Below are positions 14,883-52,802 of a stretch of DNA of 53,336 bases, piece after piece. Every line of letters starts with the position of its first letter. Position 1 is the stretch's first letter. Position numbers and translations under genes: made by a program. Below the pieces are notes generated by a model. That model was not told where the DNA came from. It was given only the letters and a program-made list of their open reading frames with translations, and searched no databases. The stretch spans positions 1 to 53,336 of the forward strand of contig JBDRMT010000026.1 in the NCBI GenBank assembly GCA_043811855.1, in the 5' to 3' direction. The stretch comes from an archaeon. Lineage in GTDB: Archaea > Nanobdellota > Nanobdellia > Pacearchaeales > GW2011-AR1.

Positions 14883-15659
14883 ATGGAAGAAACAAGTTAC
14901 GGAGAAATTAAAGCAGGAAAACCTGAATTTGAACCAAGAGACTTACTGGTAGTTCCTCATAAAGAAAATCCCTTAGTTGTTAGTAGGTTTGGACTAAATA
15001 ATTATAAAAATAATTTACAACAAATGAAAGGAAAATTTTCTTGTTTGCCAGATTACCCTCAAATAACCTTTAGACCTGCAATTACTTCAGAATCAATTTC
15101 AGCAGTTGCTTATAATTTTAAAAACATAGCTAAACCACAAATTTTTGACCCTAATTTGTTACAAGCAGGATATATAACAAGAACATCAGAAGGAGTTTTT
15201 GCAAATCCTTTTGATGAACAAGGAAATCCATTAACTGATAAAAAAACTCTTAAATTAAAATTAAATGGAGTTAAGCCAATAAAAGTTGGAAAAGGTAATA
15301 TTTATCTCTGTGAAAATGGATTAGCTTTTGCAGAATATGATTCATTTAAGCAAGGAGTTCAGAGTAGTGAAGATTTTTCAAGATCAGGTTTAGCTAGAAT
15401 ATTAGAACATACTGAACAAGAAACAGCTGAAAACCTTGAAGCTATTTCATCACCTAAAAATTATAAATTAGGAGTAAATGTCTTTGGTTTTGAACCTATT
15501 CAAGAGTCTGTTTTAAGGGTTGCTGGCCTTTTCTCTTGTAGGCTTTCTGGTGTTGGTCAGTTGCTTGTTCTTGGTCGCAACTGGAGCGACGGCAACGGCG
15601 GCTTTGCTTTTGGGGTGTTAAATAATACTGGCGAAGCCAGCGCGCAAAATTCTGAGTAA
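14883..15659 (+). CDS. DGR target (variable) protein; VR lies at the C-terminus
   Basis: 258-aa product with no signal peptide or TM segment. The C-terminal stretch ...RVAGLFSCRLSGVGQLLVLGRNWSDGNGGFAFGV is encoded by the VR. Confidence 0.85.
   Translation: MEETSYGEIKAGKPEFEPRDLLVVPHKENPLVVSRFGLNNYKNNLQQMKGKFSCLPDYPQITFRPAITSESISAVAYNFKNIAKPQIFDPNLLQAGYITRTSEGVFANPFDEQGNPLTDKKTLKLKLNGVKPIKVGKGNIYLCENGLAFAEYDSFKQGVQSSEDFSRSGLARILEHTEQETAENLEAISSPKNYKLGVNVFGFEPIQESVLRVAGLFSCRLSGVGQLLVLGRNWSDGNGGFAFGVLNNTGEASAQNSE
15517..15617 (+). repeat. DGR variable region (VR)
   Basis: It aligns without gaps to 15844-15944 over 101 nt. Of 20 mismatches, 18 are at positions where the TR has A. Confidence 0.9.
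15628..15640 (+). promoter_or_regulatory. GC-rich stem-loop just 3' of the VR (candidate DGR target-recognition hairpin)
   Basis: The sequence is ctggc-gaa-gccag (5-bp GC-rich stem, GAA loop) followed by cgcgc. This is conspicuous in an AT-rich genome, and it begins 11 nt after the end of VR homology. Confidence 0.5.
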
Positions 15660-15810
15660 GGTTTATTAATTTTAATTTTTAAGCTATTATGTCTTAGTTT
15701 GGCTTTTAATCATGCTAGGGCCACATGTATTTTACTTATACTCAAAAGAGCATTAAATACAAATGCAACATTAAGTAAACAAATATTTTGTTAAAATATG
15801 AAGCATTGGT

Positions 15811-15830
15811 GATTTTACTTTAAAGTAAAA
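15811..15830 (+). other. perfect 20-nt palindrome 13 nt upstream of the TR
   Basis: attttactttaaagtaaaat is its own reverse complement, giving a 10-bp stem. Confidence 0.5.
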
Positions 15831-15843
15831 TGCTACATAGTCT

Positions 15844-15944
15844 GGGTTGCTGGCCTTAACTCTAATAGGCTTTCTGATGGTGATCAGTTGAATGTTAATG
15901 GCCACAACTGGAGCGACAACAACAACGGCTATGCTTTTGGAATG
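15844..15944 (+). repeat. DGR template region (TR), non-coding
   Basis: It has 26 adenines, concentrated in AAY-type triplets when read in the VR frame (LNSNRLSDGDQLNVNGHNWSDNNNGYAFGM). It lies 25 nt upstream of the RT start codon. Confidence 0.9.
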
Positions 15945-15969
15945 GCTCTAGCAACTAAGATTTATTAAT

Positions 15970-17031
15970 ATGAAAACTTACAAAAATATCTATACTCAAA
16001 TTTATAATATCAGTAATTTGCTCTTTGCTTGGAGAAAAGCAAGAAAAGGAAAAACAAAAAAACCTTATGTAATTGAATTTGAAAAAGATATTATAGGAAA
16101 CTTATTCAAGATTCATAAAGAATTAAAAAATCAAACTTACAAACCCCTACCATTAGAAACATTTATTTTACGAGATCCAAAAACTCGTAAAATTTCAAAA
16201 GCAGATTTTAGAGATAGAATAGTTCATCATGCAATAATTAGAGTTTTAGAACCAATATTTGAACCAACTTTTATTTATGATTCTTGTGCAAATAGAAAGG
16301 GCAAAGGAAACTTATTTGCCTTAAAAAGATTTTATCAATTTTCAAAGAAAGTTTCTGAAAACGGAAAAACAAAAGGAATTTTTAATAATAATCAAATTAA
16401 AGGTTATTGTTTAAAAGCAGACATAAAACATTATTTTCATGAAGTTGATCATGAATCTCTTTTGAATATAATTAAAAGAAAAATATTTGATAAAAGAGTT
16501 ATTTTGTTAATTAAACAAGTCTTAAATAATATTGCGAGGGGGACGAAACAGTTCAAAATTCACAATTTTACAAAAGGCATGCCTTTAGGAAATTTAACAA
16601 GCCAGTTTTTTGCAAATATTTATTTAAATGAATTAGATTATTTTGTAAAACATGAATTAAGATGTAAGTATTATATTAGGTATGTTGATGATTTTATTTT
16701 ACTTTCTTCTTCAAAATCACAACTTGAAATTTGGAAACAAAAAATTAGTAAATTTCTTAATAAAAAATTAAAATTAGAACTTCATACAGATAAATCAAGA
16801 ATAATTTCTCTTTCAAAAGGAATTGATTTTGTTGGATTTAGAAACTTTTATTATCATAAGTTATTAAGAAAAAGAAATATTAGAAAGATGAAATATAAAA
16901 TAAGATTATTTAATAAAAAAGAGATATCTTATGAAAAATTAATTGAAAGTTTTCAGGGATGGCAAGCTTATGCAAACTGGGCAAATAGTGATAATTTAAT
17001 AAAAAAAGTTTTAAAAGAGATTAAAATATAA
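15970..17031 (+). CDS. DGR reverse transcriptase
   Basis: RT motifs are present: RDRIVHHAI, KADIKHYFHEVDH, LGNLTSQFFANIYLNELD (the DGR-type I/LGxxxSQ signature) and RYVDDFILL (the YxDD box). No maturase/X, endonuclease or intron RNA domains are evident. Confidence 0.9.
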   Translation: MKTYKNIYTQIYNISNLLFAWRKARKGKTKKPYVIEFEKDIIGNLFKIHKELKNQTYKPLPLETFILRDPKTRKISKADFRDRIVHHAIIRVLEPIFEPTFIYDSCANRKGKGNLFALKRFYQFSKKVSENGKTKGIFNNNQIKGYCLKADIKHYFHEVDHESLLNIIKRKIFDKRVILLIKQVLNNIARGTKQFKIHNFTKGMPLGNLTSQFFANIYLNELDYFVKHELRCKYYIRYVDDFILLSSSKSQLEIWKQKISKFLNKKLKLELHTDKSRIISLSKGIDFVGFRNFYYHKLLRKRNIRKMKYKIRLFNKKEISYEKLIESFQGWQAYANWANSDNLIKKVLKEIKI

Positions 17032-17979: not shown

Positions 17980-19200
17980 TTATTCATATCTTAGTGCATC
18001 AACTGGTTTTAATTTGCTTGCTTGATAAGAAGGTAAAACTCCTGAAACTAGTCCTACAATAAACGCAAAAGCTAAACTTCCAACAATTATCCAAGGATTC
18101 ATAGAAGCTCTTAGTAAAGTAGATCCAATATAAACAAATGCAATATATTCAATAGATTTTGCAATTATTATTCCAATTACTACACCTGCTAATCCTCCTA
18201 CTAATCCTAAAATTCCAGCTTCAATAACAAATATTGATAATATATCAGAATTTTTTGCACCAATAGCTTTCATAGTTCCAATTTCTTTTCTTCTTTCTAA
18301 AACAGAAGTATACATTGTATTTGCAATTCCAATTCCTCCAACAATAACTGAAATTGATCCAATTCCCAATAAAAATGCAGTTAAAATATTTAAAATATTA
18401 TTAAAAGTACCTAAAAGTTCTTCAGGTGTAAGAACTGTAAAATCCATTGTTTCTTCTTTAACATCTCTAAACTTCATTAATTTTCTTTCAGCTCTTTCTG
18501 CAACTTCATTCATATCTTCTCCTTTTTTAATTTGTGCATAAATAAAATCAACTCTTTCTCCAGAATTAAATAAGCCTTGAAAATCTTTATAAGAAATATA
18601 AACTTGTTGATCATCTTGAGGATTTCCAACAGCATCTAAAACTCCAACAACTTCAAATTCAACATCATTTATAATAATGATATCTCCAGCTGAAACAGGT
18701 TTATCAAATATTTTTCTATATTTATAATTATAACCTATTGCAGCTTTTCCAGATTCTCCTTCCCTTATGAATCTTCCATCTTCCATATCAAGCCCTGTAG
18801 ATTCAAAAACCAAATCTAATTTATCTCCTTCAGTAGGTAAACCCATTACTGAAAAATATCTTGTTTGGTCCTTAAATTCAAATTTTGCATTTCCCATAGT
18901 AAAATAAGTAACTCCCTCAACACCCTTTACTTTTTCAATAATATCAACATCATCTAAAGTTAATTCAACAGCATTTCCAGTTGAACCAGGAGCTCCTGCC
19001 TGCCCTTTAGGTTGTATAAAAAACTTATCTGTTCCTAATAATTCAAACTGTTCATTAACAAACTCATTTAAACCTAAAGATAAACTTAATAAAACAAAAA
19101 TAGTTAAAATTGCTAAAAATATTCCTAATAATGTTAAAATACTTCTAGCTTTTCTTTGCAATAAACTTCTATAAGCTATTTTAAAATAATCTTGTATCAT
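17980..19200 (-). CDS. ABC transporter permease, MacB/FtsX family
   Basis: It has an N-terminal TM segment, a large periplasmic-type domain, and an FtsX C-terminal 3-TM block (GIANTMYTSVLERRKEIGTMKAIGAKNSDI). It ends ...YQASKLKPVDALRYE. Confidence 0.85.
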   Translation of the reverse strand: MIQDYFKIAYRSLLQRKARSILTLLGIFLAILTIFVLLSLSLGLNEFVNEQFELLGTDKFFIQPKGQAGAPGSTGNAVELTLDDVDIIEKVKGVEGVTYFTMGNAKFEFKDQTRYFSVMGLPTEGDKLDLVFESTGLDMEDGRFIREGESGKAAIGYNYKYRKIFDKPVSAGDIIIINDVEFEVVGVLDAVGNPQDDQQVYISYKDFQGLFNSGERVDFIYAQIKKGEDMNEVAERAERKLMKFRDVKEETMDFTVLTPEELLGTFNNILNILTAFLLGIGSISVIVGGIGIANTMYTSVLERRKEIGTMKAIGAKNSDILSIFVIEAGILGLVGGLAGVVIGIIIAKSIEYIAFVYIGSTLLRASMNPWIIVGSLAFAFIVGLVSGVLPSYQASKLKPVDALRYE

Positions 19201-20414
19201 GATCTCAATGCATCAACTGGCTTTAATTTACTTGCTTGATAAGAAGGAATTAATCCTGAAAAAACTCCAATTAAAAAAGAAAAAATTACCATTGAAACAA
19301 TGAATAAAATAGAAATATTAACTCTTATGATTTCATTTCCAAAAAAACTATTTGCAGCTCCTGCAGCACCTAAAGATAATAAAGTTCCTATTAAGACTCC
19401 AATTACCCCTCCTACAAAACCCATTAATCCTGATTCAATAACAAATATTGATAATATATCAGAATTTTTTGCACCAATTGCTTTCATAGTTCCAATTTCT
19501 TTTCTTCTTTCTAAAACAGAAGTATACATTGTATTTGCAATTCCAATTCCTCCAACAATTAAAGATATCATTGCAATACCAATAACAACTAAATTAACAG
19601 AAAAAAGAATATCTCTTACAGCACCAATAGCTTCTAAAGGTGTTTCAACAGAAAAATCTTCTTCACCTTCATCTAAATTTCTATCGTTTCTTAAAGCTTT
19701 TTCAATTCTTTGTCCAACTTCTTCAATTTCATCAGGATTTTCAACCTGAGCAACAATTAAATCAATTTCATCATCAATATCTAACAAATCTTTCATATCA
19801 TCATTTAACATTACAATAACGTCATTAGTCTGAAAACTACTGCCTTTTTTCAAAATACCAATAACCTCAAAATTTTCTCCTTGTATCTTTAAATTTTTTC
19901 CAACCTCTATTTCTTTACCAAAAGTTGTTTCTTTTGCAATATTTTGACCAATAACAATCTTTCCATTATCTCCTTGTTTTAATAATCTTCCTTCTTCAGC
20001 AACTAAATCTCCTGCACCATAAACCACATCCATCTGTTCTTCTTCTTCAGGAATATCTCCAATATAATTAAAACTAGCAACTTTGTTATACTCAACCTTA
20101 ACAACCCTAATCAATCGTTGAACAACTACATCAACCCCCCTTACACTTTCAATAACTTCTACATCATGTTCATTTAGTTTTTCAACAACAGTACTTCCAG
20201 GAGGTCCAAATCCTGTTCCTGCATTTTGAATAGTTAATTTATCTGTTGAAAGTGTTGCAAATTGAGCAGTAACTGCATCCTGAAGCCCTTGCCCCAACCC
20301 TACAAGAGCAACAACAGCAGCAATCCCAATAAAAATACCCAACATTGTTAACCAGCTTCTTAACTTCCTTCGCCTTAGATTATTTGTAGCTAGTTTAAAA
20401 AAATCTATTATCAT
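19197..20414 (-). CDS. ABC transporter permease, MacB/FtsX family (paralog)
   Basis: It has the same architecture and an identical GIANTMYTSVLERRKEIGTMKAIGAKNSDILSIFVIE block. It overlaps the downstream permease by 4 nt. Confidence 0.85.
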   Translation of the reverse strand: MIIDFFKLATNNLRRRKLRSWLTMLGIFIGIAAVVALVGLGQGLQDAVTAQFATLSTDKLTIQNAGTGFGPPGSTVVEKLNEHDVEVIESVRGVDVVVQRLIRVVKVEYNKVASFNYIGDIPEEEEQMDVVYGAGDLVAEEGRLLKQGDNGKIVIGQNIAKETTFGKEIEVGKNLKIQGENFEVIGILKKGSSFQTNDVIVMLNDDMKDLLDIDDEIDLIVAQVENPDEIEEVGQRIEKALRNDRNLDEGEEDFSVETPLEAIGAVRDILFSVNLVVIGIAMISLIVGGIGIANTMYTSVLERRKEIGTMKAIGAKNSDILSIFVIESGLMGFVGGVIGVLIGTLLSLGAAGAANSFFGNEIIRVNISILFIVSMVIFSFLIGVFSGLIPSYQASKLKPVDALRS

Positions 20415-27010: not shown

Positions 27011-27126
27011 TGAAGACAACATCATAGCTTTACTTCATTTCTGAAACTAATACTAATGACATAGCCTGCTTAACTTCTCTGTTCGGAATGGAAAGAGGTG
27101 TGACCAGACTATTGTGGTCGTCTTCA
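27011..27126 (-). rRNA. rrf: 5S ribosomal RNA
   Basis: The reverse complement begins tgaagacgaccacaatagtctggtcacacctctttccattccgaacagagaagttaagcaggc. It contains the universal 5S core CC(A/C)TTCCGAAC...GAAGTTAAGC. The ends pair as helix I (tgaagac/gtcttca). Confidence 0.8.
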
Positions 27127-28717: not shown

Positions 28718-28999
28718 TTAATTTCCACACTTATCCTTTGGAAAAGGGCTACGTTTTTTAATATAATCCAACTTATTTTGAGAATCTTCTTTATTATCAG
28801 GAGCATAACCATGAGCGCCACTTCCCTCTCCTGAAAGTATTATACTTGATCCACTTTCTTGTTTAGGAGCATAACCATGAGCGCCACTTCCCTCTCCTGC
28901 AATTTTTCCATGTGCACCACTTCCGCTTCCAGAACATCCACTCATTAAAATAACTCCACCTGCTAATAAACTTAACAATCTACTTGTCTTTTTTCTCAT
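28718..28999 (-). CDS. putative lipoprotein with Gly/His repeats
   Basis: The signal plus lipobox-like sequence is LLAGGVILMSGC. The motifs GSGSGAHG, GEGSGAHGYAP and GEGSGAHGYAP follow. Confidence 0.55.
   Translation of the reverse strand: MRKKTSRLLSLLAGGVILMSGCSGSGSGAHGKIAGEGSGAHGYAPKQESGSSIILSGEGSGAHGYAPDNKEDSQNKLDYIKKRSPFPKDKCGN
28799..28899. repeat. exact 35-nt direct repeat (period 66 nt) inside the lipoprotein gene
   Basis: aggagcataaccatgagcgccacttccctctcctg occurs at 28799-28833 and 28865-28899. It encodes the GEGSGAHGYAP repeats. Confidence 0.9.
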
Positions 29000-29265: not shown

Positions 29266-31689
29266 ATGAAAAATAAAATATATGATTGTACAGGAATTGG
29301 ATCAGCAATACTAGACATAGTCTTTGAAGTGCCTGATAGTATCTTAGACGAACTTAACTTAAATAAAGGAGAAATGCATTTAGTAGATAAAGAAAAAAGT
29401 AATGAAATCTTAGAAAAATTATCTTCTTATGAATCAAGAATAGTTCCAGGAGGGAGTGCATCAAACACTGTTGCAGGAATTAGCTTTTTAGGAGGCAAAT
29501 CAGGTTTTATTGGAAAAATAGGAAAGGATAAACATGGGGAAATATACAAAGAAGTAACTAAAAGATTTAATGTTGATAATGATTTATCAGATCATGAATC
29601 AGAATCAACAGCAATTGCAATAACTTTTATAACTCCAGATAAACAAAGAACCTTTGCAACTTATTTAGGAGCTTGTTTGCATCTAAATCAAGATAATATA
29701 AATAAAGAGAAAATAAAAAATAGTAAGATTATACATTTAGAAGGATATCAACTAGATATCCCAAACATAAAAGAAAATTTGTTAGATATTTTAAAATATG
29801 CTAAAAAAAACAAAACTCTTGTATCTCTTGATTTATCAGATTCTGCTTTAATTTTAAGGCATAAAGATTTCTTAGATAATTTATTAAAAAATTATGTTGA
29901 TATTGTTTTTGCAAATGATGATGAAGCAAAAACATTTACAAATAAAGAACCAGAACAAGCCTTAGATGAACTTTCAAATTATTGTAATACAGCAATTGTA
30001 AAACTAGGTGAAAAAGGAAGTTTAATTAAAAAAGATAATAAAATCTATAAAATACCTGCTCAAAAAGTAAAAGTTGAAAATACAAATGGTGCAGGAGATA
30101 TGTATGCTGCAGGAATATTATATGGAATTGCAAAAAATCAAGATTTAAAAAACGCAGGTAATTTAGCAAGCAATGCAGCAGCATTAGTTGTTTCAAATAA
30201 AGCCGCAAGACTTGAAGATGATCAAAAACAGATAGTAAACCTTTTAAAGGATAAATACAGTTCAGAAATACTGAAAATGGACGAAACAGAAAATTATAAG
30301 GTAAGAGACATTTCCTTAGCAGAATTTGGAAGAAAAGAAATAGAAATTGCAGAAAAAGAAATGCCTGGTTTAATGGCAATTAGAGAAAAATATGGCCCTA
30401 ATAAGCCTTTAAAAGGAGCAAGGATAACAGGAAGCTTGCATATGACAATCCAAACAGCAGTTTTAATAGGAACTTTAGTTGAATTAGGAGCAGATGTAAG
30501 ATGGGCTAGTTGTAATATTTTCTCTACTCAAGACCATGCTGCAGCTGCAATAGCAGAAACAGGAGTTCCTGTTTTTGCATGGAAAGGTGAAACACTAAAA
30601 GAATATTGGTGGTGCACTAAAAAAGCATTAGATTTTGGAGAGAGTTTAGGTCCAAATTTAATTGTAGATGATGGAGGAGATGCAACTTTAATGATTCACA
30701 AAGGAGTAGAAGTTGAAAAAAATCCTAAGTTATTAGAAAAAGATTATTCAGATGAAGGAGAAGATTTTAAAGAACTTATGCTAAGCTTAAAAGAAATTTA
30801 TCAAGAAGATAATCAAAGATGGACTAATATTGTTAAAGAAATGAAAGGAGTTTCAGAAGAAACTACCACAGGAGTTAATAGATTATACCAAATGTTAAAT
30901 GAAAACAAATTATTGTTTCCAGCAATTAATGTTAATGATTCTGTTACAAAATCTAAATTTGATAATTTATATGGATGTAGAGAAAGTTTAGCAGATGGTA
31001 TAAAAAGAGCAACAGATGTTATGATTGCAGGAAAAACAGTTGTTGTATGTGGTTATGGAGATGTAGGAAAAGGTTGTGCTCAAAGCATGAAAGGTTTTGG
31101 AGCAAGAGTTATTGTAACTGAAATTGATCCAATTTGTGCATTACAAGCAGCAATGGAAGGATATGAAGTCAAGACAATTGAAGATAGTTTAGATGAAGCA
31201 AATATTTATGTAACAACAACAGGTAATAGGGATATTATTAGGATTGAACATATGGAAAAAATGAAAGATCAAGCAATTGTTTGTAATATTGGACATTTTG
31301 ATAATGAAATACAAATGGATAAATTAGAAAAATATCCAGATATTAAAAAAATAAATATAAAATCTCAGGTTGATAAATACAAATTTCCAGATGGACATGA
31401 AATATTTATTTTAGCAGAAGGAAGATTAGTTAATCTAGGATGTGCAACAGGTCATCCAAGTTTTGTTATGAGTAATTCATTTGCAAATCAAACTCTTGCT
31501 CAAATTGATTTATGGACTAAAGATTATGAAGTTGGGGTTTACATGCTTTCAAAAGAATTAGATGAAGAAGTTGCAAGACTTCATTTAGATAAACTTGGAG
31601 TAAAACTTACAAAACTAACTCAAGAACAGGCAGACTATCTTGGAATAAAAAAAGAAAGTAATTTTAAACCAGACCATTATAGGTATTGA
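29266..31689 (+). CDS. ahcY: fusion protein: PfkB-family (adenosine/nucleoside-type) kinase plus S-adenosyl-L-homocysteine hydrolase
   Basis: The N-terminal roughly 330 aa are ribokinase-like ([20 protein letters not shown]). From about aa 343 the sequence is canonical SAHH ([33 protein letters not shown], the NAD site GYGDVGKG, and [13 protein letters not shown]). It is one uninterrupted frame. Confidence 0.85.
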
Positions 31690-36651: not shown

Positions 36652-38874
36652 CTAGAAATTCATTACTTTGTTTTTAGATTTAATATACTCAAGTGCTTTT
36701 CTTCTTTCATTTTTTAGTTGTTCATCTGTCATAACATCATGTTCAAATGTAAAATCTCTGTCTATTTCTCCTTCTTTTAAACCTAAAGTCATATTGTAAA
36801 TAGAAAAATCCTCTGTTTTTAATTTAATTCCATACTTTTTAGGGTTAGTATAAATATCTGATCCTGGATAAGGAACAAAAGTAGATACATTAACAGCATG
36901 AGGATGAGTTTTTTCAACAAACTGAATAAGTCTATCTGCAAAACCTGGTTTTTCTCCAGGAAGTCCAATAATAAAAAATAAACGAACCTTTATCCCTGCA
37001 TCATGAGTCATTTTAATAATATTTTCTGCTTGTTCTAAACCTATATTTTTACCAACTTTATCTAAAACCTCTTGTGTTGGAGATTCTATACCATAAGCAT
37101 TTTCCTCACAACCAGCTTTTTTTAAATGATAAAGAATTTCAGGGTCTACATAATCAACCCTAGTTTCTATTCTAAATCTAATTCCAAGAGGAGCAATTTT
37201 TTCACAAATTTCTATTAATCTCTTTTTATTTACTGTAAATGTGTCATCCATTATCCTGAAATTTTTAATATCATGATATTTAATAATCTCTTTTATTTCT
37301 TCAACTACATTATCAGGACTTCTAAACCTAACTCTTTGATGCCACATTATATCACTTGCACAAAACGAACAATTATTTGGACATCCTCTTGAGGTGATAA
37401 TTGCTGCTGTTGGACCTGCACCAACAAAAAGAGCATTTTCTGAAAAACAATTCTCAAAAGGAAGAAGATGTCTTGCAGGAAAAGGCACAGAATCTAAATT
37501 TTCAATAGGCTCTCTTTGATAAAATCTTTTATTATTGTTCTTATCTTCATAATCTTTTAATAAATCAAGAAAAGCAAGTTCACCTTCTCCAATAACAACT
37601 TTATCAAAAATATTACTTATTTTGTTTGAATTTGCAGTAGCATGTATTCCTCCAATTACTATCCATGAATCAGGATTTTTCTTTTTTATAATTTCTGCAA
37701 TTTTCTCAGATAAATAATAATCAGGAGTAGCAGCATTAATACCATAAACATCTGAATCTCCAATAAGTTTTTCAATCTCATCAAATTTTTTATTTCTTAA
37801 GTCTGTTATCTTTACTAAATATCCATTTTTTTCTGCAACTGCAGCTAAATAAAGAATTCCAATAGGAAGATTTCTCATGTCATCTCCAAGATAAGGATTT
37901 GAAGGAATTATTAGTTCTACTTTTGGTTTTAAAGGCTTTTTATTAAGTTCCTCTAAATACCATTTAATTGTTTTTCTTAAACCTTCTTTAAAACTTATTT
38001 TAGCTTTAAATCCAAATTCTTGCTCTGCTTTTGAAGTATCTAAACATCTTCTAGGTTGACCATCTGGTTTAGTTGTATCCCAAACAATTTCTCCTTGAAA
38101 ATTTGTTAGTTCTGCAATAATATTAACTAGCTCTTTTATTGTTGTTTCTTGCCCTGAACCAATATTAATAGGTTCGCTTTTATTATATCTCTCTATAGCT
38201 AAAATAATTGCATTAACAGCATCTTCCACATAAAGAAATTCTCTTGAAGCACTTCCAGTACCCCAAATTTCAACTTTATCTTTATTTTCTACAAATTTTT
38301 TAATTAAAGCAGGAATAACATGTGAATTTTCAGGATGAAAATCATCTCTAGGACCATAAAGATTAACCATTAACAAATGAATTGCATTAAATCCATATTG
38401 TTGCCTATAACCTTGGCTTTGAACCATCATCATTTTTTTAGTTAATCCATAAGCAGCATTTGTTTCTTCAGGATAACCTTCCCATAAATTTTCTTCTTTA
38501 AATGGAACAGGAGTAAATTTAGGATATTCGCAAACAGTTCCCATTCCATAAAATTTTTCAACATTATTTAACCTTGCATATTTTTGAATAAAAGTATTCA
38601 TTAAAATATTATTATCATAAACACTTCCAGGATTTTTTTTCATATAACCAATACCCCCACCATCAACAGCTAAATGAATAACTATCTGAGGTTTTGAATC
38701 TTCAAACAATCTCTTTACATCTCCTTCTTTTGTTAAATCATATTCATTTCTTGAAAATGTAAAAACATCTGCTCCTAATCCCTTCAACTTTTCAACTAAA
38801 AAACCTCCTACAAAACCCATGCCTCCTGTAACTAATACTCTCTTCTCACTCCAAAATTCTTTATCCATTTTCAC
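36652..38874 (-). CDS. fusion protein: GDP-L-fucose synthase/ColC-like SDR plus cobalamin-binding (class B) radical SAM domain
   Basis: The N-terminal roughly 315 aa resemble Fcl (VLVTGGMGFVGGF, AAYGLTKKMM, HVIPALIKKF). The remainder is a B12-binding-type domain (IGILYLAAV...VIGGIHAT) followed by the radical SAM motif SRGCPNNCSFC. It is a single open frame of 740 codons. Confidence 0.8.
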   Translation of the reverse strand: MKMDKEFWSEKRVLVTGGMGFVGGFLVEKLKGLGADVFTFSRNEYDLTKEGDVKRLFEDSKPQIVIHLAVDGGGIGYMKKNPGSVYDNNILMNTFIQKYARLNNVEKFYGMGTVCEYPKFTPVPFKEENLWEGYPEETNAAYGLTKKMMMVQSQGYRQQYGFNAIHLLMVNLYGPRDDFHPENSHVIPALIKKFVENKDKVEIWGTGSASREFLYVEDAVNAIILAIERYNKSEPINIGSGQETTIKELVNIIAELTNFQGEIVWDTTKPDGQPRRCLDTSKAEQEFGFKAKISFKEGLRKTIKWYLEELNKKPLKPKVELIIPSNPYLGDDMRNLPIGILYLAAVAEKNGYLVKITDLRNKKFDEIEKLIGDSDVYGINAATPDYYLSEKIAEIIKKKNPDSWIVIGGIHATANSNKISNIFDKVVIGEGELAFLDLLKDYEDKNNNKRFYQREPIENLDSVPFPARHLLPFENCFSENALFVGAGPTAAIITSRGCPNNCSFCASDIMWHQRVRFRSPDNVVEEIKEIIKYHDIKNFRIMDDTFTVNKKRLIEICEKIAPLGIRFRIETRVDYVDPEILYHLKKAGCEENAYGIESPTQEVLDKVGKNIGLEQAENIIKMTHDAGIKVRLFFIIGLPGEKPGFADRLIQFVEKTHPHAVNVSTFVPYPGSDIYTNPKKYGIKLKTEDFSIYNMTLGLKEGEIDRDFTFEHDVMTDEQLKNERRKALEYIKSKNKVMNF

Positions 38875-40845: not shown

Positions 40846-41916
40846 TTAGTTTTTATTATTTCTACATTTCAAATAAAATTCATCTTCAGCTTCTTTTAGA
40901 TCTTGATAAACCATTAATCTAACTAGTTCATAAAACTTAATTTTAGGTTCCCACCCTAATTTTTCCCTTGCTTTTGTAGGATCTGCTAGTAAATTATCAA
41001 CTTCTGCAGGCCTAAAATATCTAGGATCTATTTCAACAATAACTTTTCCATTTTCATCTAAATATTTTTCATTAACTCCTTGTTCTCCATTTGACTTAAT
41101 ATTTAAACCCACAGATCTAGCTGCTTCTTCTAAAAACTCTCTAACAGAATGATTTTCACCTGTTCCAATAACATAATCATCTGGCTCTTGTTTTTGTAAC
41201 ATTAACCACATAGCTTCAACATAATCTTTAGCATGACCCCAATCTCTTTTAGCTTCTAAATTTCCTAAAAAAACCTTTTCTTGTAAACCTAACTTAATTT
41301 TAGCTAAGGCTCTTGTTATTTTTTTTGTAACAAAAGAACCTCCTCTTCTTTCAGATTCATGATTAAACAAAATTCCATTACAAGCAAATAAATTATAAGA
41401 TTCTCTATAATTTTTTGTTATATTATGTGCAAAAACCTTTGCACAAGCATAAGGACTTCTAGGATAAAAAGGAGTCTTTTCATTTTGAGGACTTTCCATT
41501 ACTTTTCCAAACATTTCAGAAGAACTTGCTTGATAATATTTTGCTTCAGGACAAAACTTTCTCATAGCATCAAGAACCCTCAATGTTCCTAATCCTGTAA
41601 CATCAGCAGTATTTTCAGGAATATCAAAACTAACTCTAACATGGCTTTGTGCACCAAGGTTATAAATCTCATCAAATTTATTTTTCCTTAGTATATCACT
41701 TATTGAACTTGAATCTGTTAGATCTCCAAAAGTCATTATTAATCTTACATCCTTATCATGAGGATCATTAAAAATATGATCTATTCTTCCAGTATTAAAT
41801 GAACTACTCCTTCTGATTATGCCATGAACTTCATAACCTTTTTCTAAGAGAAACTCTGCAAGATAACTTCCATCTTGTCCTGTTATTCCAGTTATAAGTG
41901 CTCTTTTTCTCTCCAT
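40846..41916 (-). CDS. gmd: GDP-mannose 4,6-dehydratase
   Basis: Motifs [60 protein letters not shown]. Confidence 0.95.
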
Positions 41917-41937
41917 AGAAAGTCTATCTATAAAAAG

Positions 41938-41949
41938 TTTTTAAAGATT
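41938..41949 (-). promoter_or_regulatory. BRE/TATA-like promoter element (AATCTTTAAAAA on the minus strand) upstream of gmd
   Basis: It lies 22-33 nt upstream of the ATG at 41916. It is part of a 21-nt string, tataaaaagtttttaaagatt, that is repeated exactly at 44050-44070. Confidence 0.45.
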
Positions 41950-41993
41950 GTTATATGTATTTATATATGATTAAATTGGAAATGCCTTATATT

Positions 41994-43109: not shown

Positions 43110-44006
43110 TTATTCCTCAGTATTTTTAATACTGTAAAAAGTATTTTTAATATTTTCTATTATTTTTGGCAATTTTTCTTTAAAAACTTCTTGCGGACTC
43201 CATCCAAATAACTCTTTTGCTTGATGATTATTAAAAGCAAACCCATAATCTCCTCCTTCCATATTTTCTATTTCTATGTTTGGATCTAACATTCTTATGA
43301 ATTGTAAAATTGAAATTAAATTAGAATTACCTCCACCTGCATTAATCTTTTTACCATAATGATTAGAATCTAAAAATAATTGTATTAATCTTCCTAAATC
43401 ATCAACATGAAGAACATCTCTAACTTGTTTTCCTTTATTATTCACTCTTATTTTTTCTCCTTTTAAATAATTTTTAATTATACTTGTAATCCAATTTCCT
43501 TTAGAAGAATCAAAATCAGTATAACAAGTAGATAATCTTATTACAATACTCTTAGGCACACATTCTGAAATAAGTTCTCCAATCAACTTTGTTTTAGAAT
43601 ATGCAGTTTCAGGAGCAAAAGGTTGACTATCATCAATAAAACGTTTAAGAAAATAATAATCTTTTTTTTCAACAACATCTGATTCTTTTACACAATTACC
43701 AAAAACATCCTTTGTAGAAATATAAACAAGTTTTACATCTAAATCTTGAAGTGCATTAACTAGATTATGCATTCCTGCAACATTTACTTTATAACTTTGA
43801 TCATTTATTTTAAATGTTTTGTTAGCTTTATCAGCAATTGTAGCACAATTAACTACAGCATCAATCTTATTTTTTATAATAACCTCTTGATTAAGTGATA
43901 ATATATCTTGTTTTCTTCCCCACCCAATCACATTATTTTTTTTGCTTAAAAAAGAGTACAACCCTCTTCCTAAATAGCCTTCATGTCCTATTAAGAGTAT
44001 ATTCAT
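43110..44006 (-). CDS. NAD(P)-dependent sugar epimerase/reductase (SDR, RmlD-like)
   Basis: Motifs MNILLIGHEGYLGRGL and the YxxxK pair YSKTKLIGE. Confidence 0.75.
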   Translation of the reverse strand: MNILLIGHEGYLGRGLYSFLSKKNNVIGWGRKQDILSLNQEVIIKNKIDAVVNCATIADKANKTFKINDQSYKVNVAGMHNLVNALQDLDVKLVYISTKDVFGNCVKESDVVEKKDYYFLKRFIDDSQPFAPETAYSKTKLIGELISECVPKSIVIRLSTCYTDFDSSKGNWITSIIKNYLKGEKIRVNNKGKQVRDVLHVDDLGRLIQLFLDSNHYGKKINAGGGNSNLISILQFIRMLDPNIEIENMEGGDYGFAFNNHQAKELFGWSPQEVFKEKLPKIIENIKNTFYSIKNTEE

Positions 44007-44058
44007 TCTAAAAACTCCTTCTTTTAAATATAAACATAGAATCTCTATTTATAAAAAG

Positions 44059-44070
44059 TTTTTAAAGATT
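44059..44070 (-). promoter_or_regulatory. third copy of the AATCTTTAAAAA element, in a divergent spacer
   Basis: It lies within the exact 21-nt repeat at 44050-44070. It is 53-64 nt from the minus-strand ATG at 44006 and about 66 nt from the plus-strand ATG at 44136, so its assignment is ambiguous. Confidence 0.3.
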
Positions 44071-44135
44071 ATTACATATTACTGATATAAATCTACCCTA
44101 GTTAATTATTTAAACTAATATATTTCTATAATAAA

Positions 44136-47256: not shown

Positions 47257-47430
47257 AAATGAAATCAAAAAACATATTAATAAAACCTGTGAAAATCAAG
47301 AATATTATTAACTTATACAATTACAAGGAGAGTATACTGGAATCTATAAGCAAGAATACACTAGCACCCTAAGTTTGTAGGATATTAATACATAATAAAA
47401 TTTAAACCAAAAATAAATGAAATCAAAAAA
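47257..47430 (+). repeat. spacer element bounded by an exact 16-nt direct repeat that contains the start of the flippase gene
   Basis: aaatgaaatcaaaaaa occurs at 47257-47272 and 47415-47430. The internal block 47298-47390 is homologous to 51378-51470. Confidence 0.8.
47259..47372 (+). CDS. candidate 37-aa peptide ORF inside the spacer element
   Basis: The product is MKSKNILIKPVKIKNIINLYNYKESILESISKNTLAP*. It shares in-frame KNIxNLYNxK and SKxxLA blocks with the ORF at 51351-51473, including synonymous differences. Confidence 0.35.
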   Translation: MKSKNILIKPVKIKNIINLYNYKESILESISKNTLAP

Positions 47431-48994
47431 AGAAGGACCTGGTGAAATTGATAATTATCTTAAAAGGCTAGTTAAAACTTCTATTTTTGTTTTTTTAAGC
47501 TTAATACTATCTAAAATATTTACCTATCTTTACAGAATTATAATTGCAAGATCTTTTGGAGCAGAAGTATATGGATTATATTCTCTAGCTATGATGGTTA
47601 CTGGAATTTTAATAGCTTTTTCAGCATTAGGATTAGGAGCTGGGATTTTAAGATATTTTTCTTATTATAGAGGGAAAAAGGAAACAAGTAAAATAAAATA
47701 TATTTTAAGATCTTCTTCAAAAATATTAATCTTATCAAGTATATTTTTTATGCTATTTCAGTTTTTTTCAGCAGAGTTTATTGCTGTAAATCTATTTCAT
47801 GATGAAAGTCTTATATTATACTTAAAATGGTTTAGTATTACAATCCCCTTACTAACAATAGGATATATTTTTATATACGCTTTAAAGTCCTTTGAAAAAA
47901 CAAATTGGTCTTCTTTTTCAGAAAATATCTCTCAAAACTTAGTTCAATTTATTTTTATTGTGTTATTAATCTTTTTAGGTTTAAGAGAAATTTCAATAAT
48001 GTTTTCACATATTGCAGGAGCTGCATTTTTATTTATAATAGGGTTTATAATTTGTAAATATAAATTACCTGAAATTTTTAAGAGTTATAAATTAAATAAA
48101 AAAGAAAAAAGCAAGGTAAGAAAAGAATTATTTAACTATTCTTGGCCATTAATGCTTTTTACAATAATTTCCTCGTTTTTCTATTGGATAGATACATTTG
48201 CAATAGGTTATTTTCAAAATACACTTGAAGTTGGACTTTATAATGCAGCAGTCCCAATAGTTTCTCTTCTTTATATTGCTCCAACAATATTTGTCCAACT
48301 GCTTTTTCCACTAATTACAAAAGAATATGCAAAAAAGAATTATAATACAATAAAAGAGCTTAGTAAACAAGTAACAAAATGGATATTAATCTTAAATTTA
48401 CCAATGTTAGCAATTATGCTCTTATTTCCTGGAACAATTCTAAATATTCTTTTTGGAGCAGAATTTGTAACTACAGCAACAGAAAACGCTTTAAGGTTAT
48501 TAGCAATAGGAGTATTTTTTCCTGCAACACTCTTTATATCAAACAACCTAATATCTATGGCAGGAAAATCAAAAACAATCCTTTTAAATATGGTAGTTGT
48601 AGCCATAGTTAACATAGTATTGAATATTCTTTTAGTTCCAAAATATGGAATAGAAGGTGCAGCATTTTCAACAATGATTTCATCTGTTTTACTTGGATTA
48701 ATGTTCTTACTTCAAGGAAAATATTATTTATCAATAGTCCCATTTAGAAGGAAAATGTTAAGAATAGTTCTTGCAATAATTATTCCATCTATTATAATCT
48801 TTTACTTAAGAACCATAATTGAAATAAATATTTTAAATGTAATCACTGTTGCAATATTCTTTTTATTAATCTATATTCTATCCATAATAGTAACAGGATG
48901 TTTAGATAGAAATGATATTATGATTATAGATTCTTTTTTAAAAGGACATAAAAATTTAAAAGGTCTTTTTCATAGTGTTGAACATAAAGTATAA
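47417..48994 (+). CDS. wzx: oligosaccharide/polysaccharide flippase (Wzx, MOP superfamily)
   Basis: 525 aa with about 14 TM segments and the typical polysaccharide-biosynthesis-protein layout. Confidence 0.8.
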   Translation: MKSKKEGPGEIDNYLKRLVKTSIFVFLSLILSKIFTYLYRIIIARSFGAEVYGLYSLAMMVTGILIAFSALGLGAGILRYFSYYRGKKETSKIKYILRSSSKILILSSIFFMLFQFFSAEFIAVNLFHDESLILYLKWFSITIPLLTIGYIFIYALKSFEKTNWSSFSENISQNLVQFIFIVLLIFLGLREISIMFSHIAGAAFLFIIGFIICKYKLPEIFKSYKLNKKEKSKVRKELFNYSWPLMLFTIISSFFYWIDTFAIGYFQNTLEVGLYNAAVPIVSLLYIAPTIFVQLLFPLITKEYAKKNYNTIKELSKQVTKWILILNLPMLAIMLLFPGTILNILFGAEFVTTATENALRLLAIGVFFPATLFISNNLISMAGKSKTILLNMVVVAIVNIVLNILLVPKYGIEGAAFSTMISSVLLGLMFLLQGKYYLSIVPFRRKMLRIVLAIIIPSIIIFYLRTIIEINILNVITVAIFFLLIYILSIIVTGCLDRNDIMIIDSFLKGHKNLKGLFHSVEHKV

Positions 48995-49916: not shown

Positions 49917-51347
49917 ATGGCAAAAGTCTTACTAGTTCAACCAAACAAAAATCTGCAATTAAATACAACTTTCTATAAAACAGAAATGCCTATTAGTCTA
50001 GTTTATATGGGAACTGCAATTGAAGAGAAACACGATGTAAAAATCTATGATAGAAACTTAAATGTTAGTGATTCTGATTTTTTAAGATTTTTAAAAAGAT
50101 ATAACCCAGACATAATTGGTTTCACACTAATGACTTCTGAAATGATAATTGATTTTATGCATCTTGGAAAAATAATTAAAAAAGAATTTCCAGAAAAAAT
50201 AATTATTGTAGGAGGAGTGCATACAACAATAGAACCTGATTCAGTTTTAAATGAATCTTATGTAGATTATATAATAAGAGGAGAAGGTGAAGAAACATTT
50301 TTAGAGTTCTGCAATACTTTTGATAAAAATCCTAGAGATTTAAAGAAAATTAAAAATATTAATCATAATCCATTAAGACCTTTTGTAAATATGGATGATT
50401 TAGAACTTCCAAATTATAATTTAGTTAATTTAAAGAAATATGGAACTTATTTTATACATCTAAGTAGAGGATGTCCAGGTAATTGTACTTTTTGTTATAG
50501 TTGTGGAATGTGGGGGGTTAATAATAGGCCTTTAGTTAGAAGTTATGGGACTGAAAAAATAATGAATTTTTTTAAGAAAGTTGTTAATGAATATGATTTA
50601 AAGTATTTTACAATTTCTGATGATAATTTTATACCTTTTAAATCAAGAGCTATTAAGGTTTGTAATTTTTTAAAGGATTATAATGTACATTTTTTCTGTT
50701 ATGGAAGAGCAGATTATGTAAGTGATGAAATATTAAGACCTTTAAAAAAAGCAGGATGTCATACTATCCAAATAGGAGTTGAGTCTGGAAGTCAAAGAAT
50801 CTTAGATCTTCTTAATAAAAGAACAACAATAAAACAAAATGCTGATGCAATCGCTTGCTGTAAAAGAAATAAAATACACTGCGATGCTAGTCTTATGATT
50901 GGAATGCCAACAGAAACTAGAGAAGATTTAAAGATGACTCTAGATTTTCTTAAAAAAACAAGACCCAACACAGTAAATTTAAAAGTTTATAATCCTCTTC
51001 CTGGTCCTCCTTTATTTGATTATTGTGTTGAAAAAGGTTTATTAAAAAAACCAGAAAATCTAGAAGGTTGGAGTAAATGGGCAGGAGGTTTTTTCAGAGT
51101 CCAACATAATGTTAGTGAAATTCCAAATCAAGAACTTATGGCAGCTTCAAGAGAAGGAGAAAGTATAGATTATTATAAAAATAAGTTTAAAAAATTTATA
51201 TACTGGTTAAAAGCAGGAAATTGGGATTATGTATTAAGACAATCAAGATTACTTGTAAAGACTCCAAGAGGGTTAAAAATACCCTTAATAGGTTATTTAA
51301 AAGCTCCAGATACTTATGATGAAAATAAGCCTGAAAGAAATTTTTAA
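49917..51347 (+). CDS. cobalamin-binding (class B) radical SAM protein (paralog of 44136-45563)
   Basis: The B12-domain pattern is LVYMGTAIEE...IIVGGVHTT...IRGEGE. The radical SAM motif is SRGCPGNCTFC. Confidence 0.85.
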   Translation: MAKVLLVQPNKNLQLNTTFYKTEMPISLVYMGTAIEEKHDVKIYDRNLNVSDSDFLRFLKRYNPDIIGFTLMTSEMIIDFMHLGKIIKKEFPEKIIIVGGVHTTIEPDSVLNESYVDYIIRGEGEETFLEFCNTFDKNPRDLKKIKNINHNPLRPFVNMDDLELPNYNLVNLKKYGTYFIHLSRGCPGNCTFCYSCGMWGVNNRPLVRSYGTEKIMNFFKKVVNEYDLKYFTISDDNFIPFKSRAIKVCNFLKDYNVHFFCYGRADYVSDEILRPLKKAGCHTIQIGVESGSQRILDLLNKRTTIKQNADAIACCKRNKIHCDASLMIGMPTETREDLKMTLDFLKKTRPNTVNLKVYNPLPGPPLFDYCVEKGLLKKPENLEGWSKWAGGFFRVQHNVSEIPNQELMAASREGESIDYYKNKFKKFIYWLKAGNWDYVLRQSRLLVKTPRGLKIPLIGYLKAPDTYDENKPERNF

Positions 51348-51349
51348 AA

Positions 51350-51602
51350 AATGAAAAACAATAAATTAAAATTTAAAAAGAATATTAGGAATTTATACAA
51401 TCATAAGGGGATATGTGGTACTCTAGAAAGCAAGAGTAGCCTTGCGTGTAATGTTTATGAAATACTAATATAATCTATAAAATATGAATATAAAAGTTAA
51501 TATAAATAAAATAAATAACTCTTAAACTTACATGCTTAAACTACTCTTGCTAGTAAGATTATAAAATACTGAAACTAACACAAAACAATGAAAAACAATA
51601 AA
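51350..51602 (+). repeat. second spacer element, bounded by an exact 16-nt direct repeat that contains the start of the downstream GT gene
   Basis: aatgaaaaacaataaa occurs at 51350-51365 and 51587-51602. The internal block is homologous to 47298-47390. An internal 11-nt inverted repeat pairs agcaagagtag (51429-51439) with ctactcttgct (51541-51551). Confidence 0.8.
51351..51473 (+). CDS. candidate 40-aa peptide ORF inside the spacer element
   Basis: The product is MKNNKLKFKKNIRNLYNHKGICGTLESKSSLACNVYEILI*. It is a paralog of the ORF at 47259-47372. Confidence 0.35.
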   Translation: MKNNKLKFKKNIRNLYNHKGICGTLESKSSLACNVYEILI

Positions 51603-52802
51603 AGAAAAAAAAGAATCATATTTTACTTTGCAATGGAACCTCAAGTTTATCAATATAAATTTGCAAAGGCTTTAAGAGAAAGAGGTTATGAAACAATTTT
51701 ATTTACAATATCTGAAAAATATAAAATAAACTATGATTTTTATAACCAGGCATTTGATAAAATTTATTGTTCTGATTTTGAATTTAGAGGAGAAAATATA
51801 AAAAACATAAAATATCTTCTAAAGAAAGGACCCAAACTTCTTTATTTTTTAATAAAATCAAAACTAATAAAACCCGATGTAGTTATTGGTCTTTCAGGAA
51901 TAAATTGGCAAGTAAAATTTGCAAGAAAATATTTTTATAAAAAAATTCCTTTTATATTTTTTACTCATGATATGAGATCTCATTTTTTTGAATCAAAAAA
52001 AAGTGCTTTAAAACAAAATCTAGAATTTGAAATAGAAGCAGAAAAATATAATTTTGAAAATGCAGATGGAATAATTCATAAAGGAGCTCCAGAAGGGTTA
52101 GAAGCTATTCAAGGAAGAATCTTTAACAAGGTTAAATTACCAAAACTTCAACTAAGCTTTGAACCTTATTGCTCTAAAGAATTTCAAGTACCTATAAATA
52201 AAGATAAACTTTCAAAAAAAGATAAAGAATTACATTTAGTATATGTAGGTTTTTTTTGGACTAATCAAGGAGAAGCAGGTTCACATTTCTTTAACAAACT
52301 ATTAGACCAAAAAATTCATCTTCACTTATATATTACAGGAATAGGAGATGATCTTTCAAAAGAAGAAAAATTAGATTATCTTAATGATTTTTTTCCAGGA
52401 TGTAAAGAAAATAAATATTTTCATATTCATCCAACCCTTCCTCCCAAGGATTTAATTCCAGAAATTTCTAAATATGACTTTGGATTATTTCCATTGATTC
52501 CTCTTTCAAAAGAAAATATAGAACCAAAGTTTTGCGCATCAAATAAAATAGCTTCTTATTTAGAAGCTGGATTACCTCTAATAACTCCTGAGGAACTTAT
52601 TTTTTTAAATAAAACCTTAAAATCTTATGGATTAGATATAATTTATAATGATAAAAACATAATGGGTTTAAATAAGAGGTTAAAAAAATTAGATTACGAA
52701 GATTTAATTAATAAACTTAAAAAAATGAGAGAAGAATATAGTATAGAAAAAAATATTAACAAACTTCAAGAGTTTATTGAGGAGGTAATTAAAAATAAAT
52801 AA
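51588..52802 (+). CDS. GT-B-fold glycosyltransferase (GT4-like)
   Basis: The C-terminal CASNKIASYLEAGLPLITPEE resembles the GT4 sugar-donor-binding helix. The overall length and N-terminal Rossmann-like half also fit. Confidence 0.5.
   Translation: MKNNKRKKRIIFYFAMEPQVYQYKFAKALRERGYETILFTISEKYKINYDFYNQAFDKIYCSDFEFRGENIKNIKYLLKKGPKLLYFLIKSKLIKPDVVIGLSGINWQVKFARKYFYKKIPFIFFTHDMRSHFFESKKSALKQNLEFEIEAEKYNFENADGIIHKGAPEGLEAIQGRIFNKVKLPKLQLSFEPYCSKEFQVPINKDKLSKKDKELHLVYVGFFWTNQGEAGSHFFNKLLDQKIHLHLYITGIGDDLSKEEKLDYLNDFFPGCKENKYFHIHPTLPPKDLIPEISKYDFGLFPLIPLSKENIEPKFCASNKIASYLEAGLPLITPEELIFLNKTLKSYGLDIIYNDKNIMGLNKRLKKLDYEDLINKLKKMREEYSIEKNINKLQEFIEEVIKNK

Follow-up and report, generated by a model that had tools for sequence, protein, structure and literature searches.

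Why should two genes of one compact archaeal operon each be preceded by a second copy of their own start? The question is raised by contig JBDRMT010000026.1, which was analysed over its full 53,336 nt (hereafter the window) and comes from a DPANN archaeon with a GC content of about 27%, its closest proteins being found in metagenome-assembled genomes of Nanoarchaeota and Pacearchaeota. Within a cluster of genes for glycan synthesis, the beginnings of a glycosyltransferase (GT) gene and of a Wzx-type flippase gene are duplicated, and each pair of duplicates encloses an insert. The site at 51 kb is called copy B and that at 47 kb, which lies approximately 4 kb upstream and has the same design, copy A. 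A sequence-only reading of this DNA had proposed that copy B is the second occurrence of one type of insert flanked by a duplication of the downstream gene start. This proposal was borne out: the two inserts are homologous, both are bounded by perfect 16-nt duplications that begin 1-2 nt before an ATG, and the orthologous sites of relatives are empty.

Duplicated gene starts around two homologous inserts

All features of both sites lie on the forward strand. In copy B, the gene upstream of the insert (49917-51347, stop codon 51345-51347) codes for a B12-binding radical-SAM protein of 476 aa, and the gene downstream of it (51588-52802) for a Gtf3_C-like GT of 404 aa. The sequence AATGAAAAACAATAAA is found at 51350-51365 and again at 51587-51602, as had been read from the sequence. 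The GT gene takes its true ATG (51588) and its codons 1-5 from the downstream occurrence; the upstream one has its own ATG (51351), which opens an open reading frame (ORF) of 40 codons. Between them lies insert B, 221 nt long (51366-51586). In copy A, AAATGAAATCAAAAAA occurs at 47257-47272, where the ATG at 47259 opens a 37-codon ORF (47259-47372), and at 47415-47430, where it includes the true start (47417) of the flippase gene (47417-48994). Insert A measures 142 nt (47273-47414). Relative to the downstream gene the duplications span positions -1/-2 to +14/+15 in both copies. The upstream repeat follows the preceding stop codon with a spacing of 3 nt in B and 11 nt in A, and deletion in silico of the insert together with one repeat leaves intergenic spacers of just these lengths.

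The duplications are real and beyond chance. Exact direct repeats of at least 15 nt, spaced 30-400 nt apart, number three in the window. Two are the start-codon duplications and the third is a 35-nt repeat within a small lipoprotein gene, which leaves the former as the sole non-coding repeats of this kind; third-order Markov simulations predict 0.22 such 16-mers per window. An assembly artefact was ruled out, because a contig assembled independently in Logan (SRR27458547) shows 100% identity across 11,371 nt and because a 16-nt repeat falls below the length of any assembly k-mer. The 35-nt repeat, at 28799 and 28865, stems from the internal repeat GEGSGAHGYAP of a 93-aa lipoprotein-like ORF (28718-28999, minus strand).

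The local alignment of inserts A and B scores 48, as compared with 25 +/- 4.1 and a maximum of 42 for 1000 dinucleotide shuffles, and a maximum of 37 across 930 real segments of the window. With copy A alone as the query, nhmmer recovers copy B at E = 0.0086. From about 47296 to 47393 the homology is ungapped, positions in B differing from those in A by 4080 nt throughout. The cores are approximately 72% identical, while the flanking repeats are identical at 16 of 16 positions. Two blocks stand out. Block 1, AAGAATATTA..AA.TTATACAAT.A.AAGG.GA (51378-51410), is identical to 47298-47330 at 28 of 33 positions, and block 2, AAGCAAGA.TA..CT.GC....AA.GTTT... (51428-51473), forms the left arm of a hairpin in copy B. 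The patch of 19 nt that separates them has the same length in A and B but an unrelated sequence.

The hairpin (51412-51568), which is long and imperfect, is an inverted duplication of block 2 and occurs in copy B only. It contains the exact 11-nt inverted repeat (51429-51439 with 51541-51551) that the sequence-only reading had singled out as missing from the shorter copy, and copy A indeed has no such structure. The predicted RNA fold of the copy B hairpin amounts to -36.1 kcal/mol (z = -3.3) and was equalled by none of 200 shuffles, whereas copy A has no significant fold (z = +1.25).

Orthologous junctions in related Nanoarchaeota are compact, which argues that the inserts were introduced into once-tight junctions. 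In locus L072, the gene order is conserved, with a B12 radical-SAM gene whose product is 80% identical to that of the window and aligns to the last residue, followed after 29 nt by a GT gene (62% identity); nothing in that 29-nt spacer resembles an insert. In locus L002, the GT gene begins 9 nt past the upstream stop and the ATG of the flippase gene overlaps the stop of its upstream neighbour, and in locus L073 the flippase gene and the gene before it overlap by 4 nt. More generally, the gap upstream of the GT is at most 57 nt in 12 of the 15 relatives that have a co-directional upstream gene. Both downstream starts were assigned correctly, as the N-termini of GT homologues (MEKKKRIVFY, MKNKKRIIFY) align with MKNNKRKKRIIFY from residue 1 and, for the flippase, MKNTKKKE aligns with MKSKKEGP, also from residue 1. 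In 430 kb of related loci, no further gene start was seen to be duplicated in this way. A search for strain variants with and without the insert came to nothing: none of the four flanking proteins has a true companion in its 90% cluster, two additional 'members' of the GT cluster being unrelated 33-aa fragments.

Proposed footprints of a small insertion element

How might the inserts have arisen? A local tandem duplication of each junction was excluded, because the inserts resemble neither the 3' ends of the upstream genes nor the 5' ends of the downstream ones. Among the comparisons with gene ends, the highest similarity, between insert A and the start of the L072 GT gene, was matched by 11 of 300 shuffles, uncorrected for 14 tests. 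The reading we favour, which we hold to be about evenly balanced between right and wrong, is that A and B are diverged copies of a short non-coding module of roughly 140-220 nt, the footprints of a small non-autonomous insertion element at junctions of a compact glycan operon. A staggered cut of approximately 16 nt at the start of the downstream gene, followed by fill-in, would produce the target duplication. As the duplication covers the start codon and the first five codons, the downstream copy retains them and the gene stays intact. The upstream copy opens a short ORF reading into the insert as far as the first stop, so the 37- and 40-codon peptides would be by-products. The contrast between perfect repeats and cores of about 72% identity implies that each insertion postdates the separation of A and B and that further source copies should exist.

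The location is explained in part by the compactness of the operon, in which few insertions other than those over a start codon leave every gene whole. Nevertheless, within the range of positions that would be tolerated, both duplications lie at the far downstream edge (approximately 3 of 20 positions for B and 3 of 28 for A; p about 0.02, an estimate), which suggests a real target preference. The resemblance between the two duplicated targets (AATGAAA..CAA.AAA), from which a site preference had already been surmised, thus gains support from their placement.

The element might also bring a promoter. Most genes of the window with an upstream gap have a TATA-like box, of consensus ATATTTAAAA. 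In 12 of 31 genes the end of this box lies 20-23 nt ahead of the ATG, the modal spacing being 22 nt, and such an arrangement suggests leaderless transcripts in this genome. In insert B, the sequence AGATTATAAA (51556-51565, forward strand) ends 22 nt before the ATG at 51588. It is the best match to the promoter matrix in the insert, with a score of 8.2 that falls in the top 0.13% of window positions. Because the box matches the matrix at the modal spacing of the genome, we infer that insert B supplies a leaderless promoter for the displaced GT gene.

Several results weigh against the insertion-element reading. In copy A, no box is present at the canonical spacing, the best candidates having gaps of 9, 17 and 25 nt, and therefore the flippase may still be dependent on the upstream transcript. 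The known copies are two, within 53 kb and in one operon, and their termini are unlike: the upstream repeat is separated from the core by 25 nt in A and by 12 nt in B, so the ends are not common to the copies. Terminal inverted repeats joining the ends of either insert were not found, inverted repeats being internal only. With nhmmer, no match to the insert was obtained in 430 kb of Nanoarchaeota and Pacearchaeota loci or in 44 kb of newer ones, even though an identical search recovers B from A. Four core patterns run against genome, metagenome and viral collections returned chance matches only, similarity ending with the pattern in all 14 matches inspected, and phage and plasmid records yielded no match to the insert. 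The window encodes no transposase, casposase or other candidate integrase apart from an Xer-like tyrosine recombinase and the reverse transcriptase of a diversity-generating retroelement (DGR). Finally, both small ORFs share one reading frame over the core, the most open frame of the three. This would happen by chance one time in three, and a model in which the peptides are pure by-products does not predict it.

One sequence met in these searches is a 24-nt stretch, AAGAATATTAGGAATTTATACAAT, identical at 24 of 24 positions to block 1 of insert B and located at L012 9213-9236 (Ga0209536_100000003), on an unrelated contig with 42% GC. It lies shortly past the 3' end of an apparent tRNA gene and the similarity does not extend beyond it; the match is probably due to chance.

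As for the enzyme that would have mobilised the element, no Cas1 homologue was noticed among the scanned window proteins. With respect to retroposition, A-rich sequence is present at the targets and at the 3' ends of the inserts, and the 5' ends are unlike; the 3' parts cannot be aligned clearly, no poly(A) was detected at the inserts, and the sole reverse transcriptase in the window is that of the DGR. It is tempting to speculate that the inserts derive from an undescribed archaeal mobile element that has no terminal inverted repeats, makes a fixed stagger of approximately 16 bp precisely over gene starts of the type AATGAAA..CAA.AAA and so rebuilds the gene, delivers a leaderless promoter and relies on a casposase-like integrase or a reverse transcriptase; we regard this more specific proposal as doubtful. 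If it were true, compact DPANN operons could be split into new transcription units by such elements.

The DGR itself is complete (14883-17031). Its variable repeat (15517-15613) is at the 3' end of ORF 14883-15659 and its template repeat at 15844-15940, and 16 of the 18 mismatches between the two are at template adenines. The Rfam RT-16 RNA (15692-15841) and the reverse transcriptase gene (15970-17031) complete the system.

Recombination, regulation or peptides

The main rival to an insertion element is a scar of recombination. According to this explanation, divergent gene modules with their own promoters were joined by homology-facilitated illegitimate recombination, and the left join fell just within the first codons of the resident gene, so that the gene start was duplicated. 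The glycan loci are indeed mosaic, as gene order differs among the window, L002, L072 and L073. Across junction B (L072 234-2902 aligned with window 49917-52802) the identity drops from 80% in the radical-SAM gene to 62% in the GT gene, which could reflect a recombination breakpoint or unequal evolutionary rates. Furthermore, a 43-nt module consisting of a promoter and an ATG has been duplicated elsewhere in the cluster. However, two perfect 16-nt duplications at the same position relative to the ATG are unexpected from illegitimate joins, and the incoming and resident genes would have to share exactly their first 16 nt and differ elsewhere. The inserts are also homologous to each other despite unrelated flanking genes. 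We consider such a scar unlikely.

The 43-nt module, another case of start-region copying in the glycan cluster, occurs at 41914-41956 and 44035-44077 as minus-strand promoters, and its two copies are 88% identical. One of them drives a leaderless GDP-mannose dehydratase gene. The other is upstream of an epimerase gene; its ATG begins an ORF of 9 codons, after which come an AGGAG motif and the real start at 44006.

Alternatively, the inserts, whatever their origin, may now be functional regulatory modules, kept as an upstream ORF or leader combined with an internal promoter that uncouples the flippase and GT genes from the genes before them; the conserved blocks would then be binding sites for proteins or RNA, or part of a small structured RNA. 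The fixed 19-nt spacing of the blocks within 95 nt free of indels, the canonical promoter box of insert B and the perfect preservation of the upstream repeat copies all fit this idea. So does a 7-bp stem within the core, formed by 47321-47327 with 47374-47380 in A and by 51401-51407 with 51454-51460 in B, in which two compensatory pair changes, one from UA to CG and the other from CG to UA, have kept the pairing. Covariation between two sequences is suggestive at most, however, and the consensus fold reaches only -4.4 kcal/mol, while the fold of copy A is not significant. An Rfam search of the inserts returned no family at gathering thresholds or at E values up to 10, and a known RNA family was accordingly dropped as their identity. 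Nothing similar is present upstream of the orthologous genes in relatives. The constant spacer had made it attractive to view block 1 as an internal promoter and block 2 as the transcript start, but block 1 scores no more than 2.9 on the promoter matrix of the genome, and this candidate was rejected. Altogether, a retained regulatory module appears quite improbable.

The least probable explanation is that the small ORFs encode real peptides. The sequence-only reading had suggested that they might be precursors of ribosomally synthesised and post-translationally modified peptides (RiPPs) for the neighbouring radical-SAM enzymes, with a conserved N-terminal part and a variable, Cys-bearing C-terminal part. 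Its description of the ORFs was accurate: 51351-51473 encodes MKNNKLKFKKNIRNLYNHKGICGTLESKSSLACNVYEILI, which aligns in frame with the product of the 47259 ORF over KNI(I/R)NLYN(Y/H)K and SK(N/S)(T/S)LA, and 16 of the 32 aligned codons are identical. Each start is suitably placed for re-initiation after the upstream stop, and genes of B12 and SPASM radical-SAM enzymes adjoin. Protein-level constraint had been deduced from three synonymous differences. These differences exist, but the full tally does not support constraint, as 4 synonymous changes stand against 16 non-synonymous ones and the nucleotide differences are distributed as 11/13/15 over codon positions 1/2/3, with no third-position bias. 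The DNA homology continues in register through the stop codon of copy A (TAA, against AAT in copy B). A Cys-bearing core common to both peptides is not found: the copy A ORF stops early and has no Cys, and two Cys residues are present in one of the two ORFs.

Each small ORF begins with five codons that belong to the duplicated start of the downstream gene and match it exactly at the nucleotide level; the duplication accounts for this identity and a peptide function does not. The openness of the frame in both copies is weak evidence for coding, and small ORFs are commonplace in such AT-rich DNA, where frames of 30-50 codons turn up often (56 of at least 30 aa in 13 kb). A word-indexed profile search covering 5.8 billion protein clusters detected no homologue of either peptide. 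When 1.84 billion representative proteins were searched exhaustively with HMMER, only two spurious matches to tandem-repeat proteins were returned, and tblastn was negative for related loci totalling 500 kb. For the five radical-SAM proteins of the cluster, Pfam reported only B12-binding, Radical_SAM and SPASM domains, with no PqqD-like domain or RiPP recognition element, and none of them reached the NCBIfam cut-offs for peptide maturases, the best scores staying far short (for example, 157.7 against 750 for ApyD and 39 against 500 for CcpM).

The likeness to RiPP clusters with radical-SAM/SPASM maturases accordingly comes down to short ORFs beside B12 and SPASM radical-SAM genes and to two Cys residues in one ORF. 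A precursor family, a recognition element, membership of a maturase family and purifying selection are missing, and the neighbourhood is a glycan pathway. Real peptides, RiPP precursors included, are therefore very improbable, and the 37- and 40-codon products are most likely by-products rather than precursors of antibiotic-like peptides. For genome mining this calls for caution, as duplicated start codons create plausible small ORFs next to radical-SAM genes that can be mistaken for RiPP precursors.

Known elements and the glycan locus

An insertion element at these two sites would have partial counterparts among known systems. MITEs (miniature transposable elements with inverted repeats) and other small prokaryotic insertion elements can carry promoters, as do the Correia elements of Neisseria, and they usually generate target duplications of 2-10 nt. 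The inserts described here are similarly short (approximately 150-220 nt), non-coding and located at gene boundaries, with a target duplication and possibly an outward promoter. They differ by the absence of terminal inverted repeats and of conserved ends, by a 16-nt duplication, and by the fact that two copies and no parent transposase are known. The Rickettsia palindromic elements, which occur in large numbers, are palindromic and sit in frame within genes, are comparable as short repeats at or in coding sequences of a compact AT-rich genome that are read as peptide segments, with no sign that the peptide itself is what counts. Here, in contrast, the duplication preserves the whole gene, and the insert is read only from the duplicated start.

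Long target duplications that rebuild a gene end are known from casposons. The casposase of A. boonei leaves a duplication of 15 bp at its natural site and, in vitro, of 15-16 bp at some off-target sites; the casposon duplication overlaps the end of a gene, which is regenerated (PMC5137440). The fixed length of 16 nt and the restored gene end are shared with the inserts of the window. Casposons, however, are large and have terminal inverted repeats, Cas1 and PolB, none of which was seen here, and they target the 3' end of a tRNA gene rather than the 5' end of protein-coding genes. Since terminal inverted repeats and Cas1 were not seen, we take the likeness as a resemblance and not as membership.

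The genomes of DPANN archaea are very small and tightly packed, and few mobile elements have been described in them. If the insertion-element reading is correct, an element that enters a compact operon without breaking a gene would provide a simple route for rewiring surface-glycan operons, because a long target duplication rebuilds the start codon and a promoter can come along. Few loci of such organisms vary as much as those for surface glycans.

The cluster in which the inserts reside comprises genes for nucleotide-sugar and glycan synthesis, namely a GDP-mannose 4,6-dehydratase, an RfbH/PseC-like aminotransferase, an epimerase and a methyltransferase, together with two SPASM and two B12 radical-SAM proteins, two glycosyltransferases and the Wzx flippase. 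At 36652-38874 (minus strand), a GDP-L-fucose synthase (Fcl) is fused to a B12-binding radical-SAM domain in a protein of 740 aa. Because of this fusion, the domain architecture suggests that the B12 radical-SAM enzymes of the cluster act on nucleotide sugars.

Elsewhere in the window, an 807-aa protein encoded at 29266-31689 (forward strand) combines a PfkB-family sugar/adenosine kinase with an S-adenosylhomocysteine hydrolase, and a stand-alone 5S rRNA gene is located at 27011-27125 (minus strand). Two tandem paralogous genes for MacB/FtsX-type permeases, 76% identical over 300 nt, occupy 17980-20414 on the minus strand.

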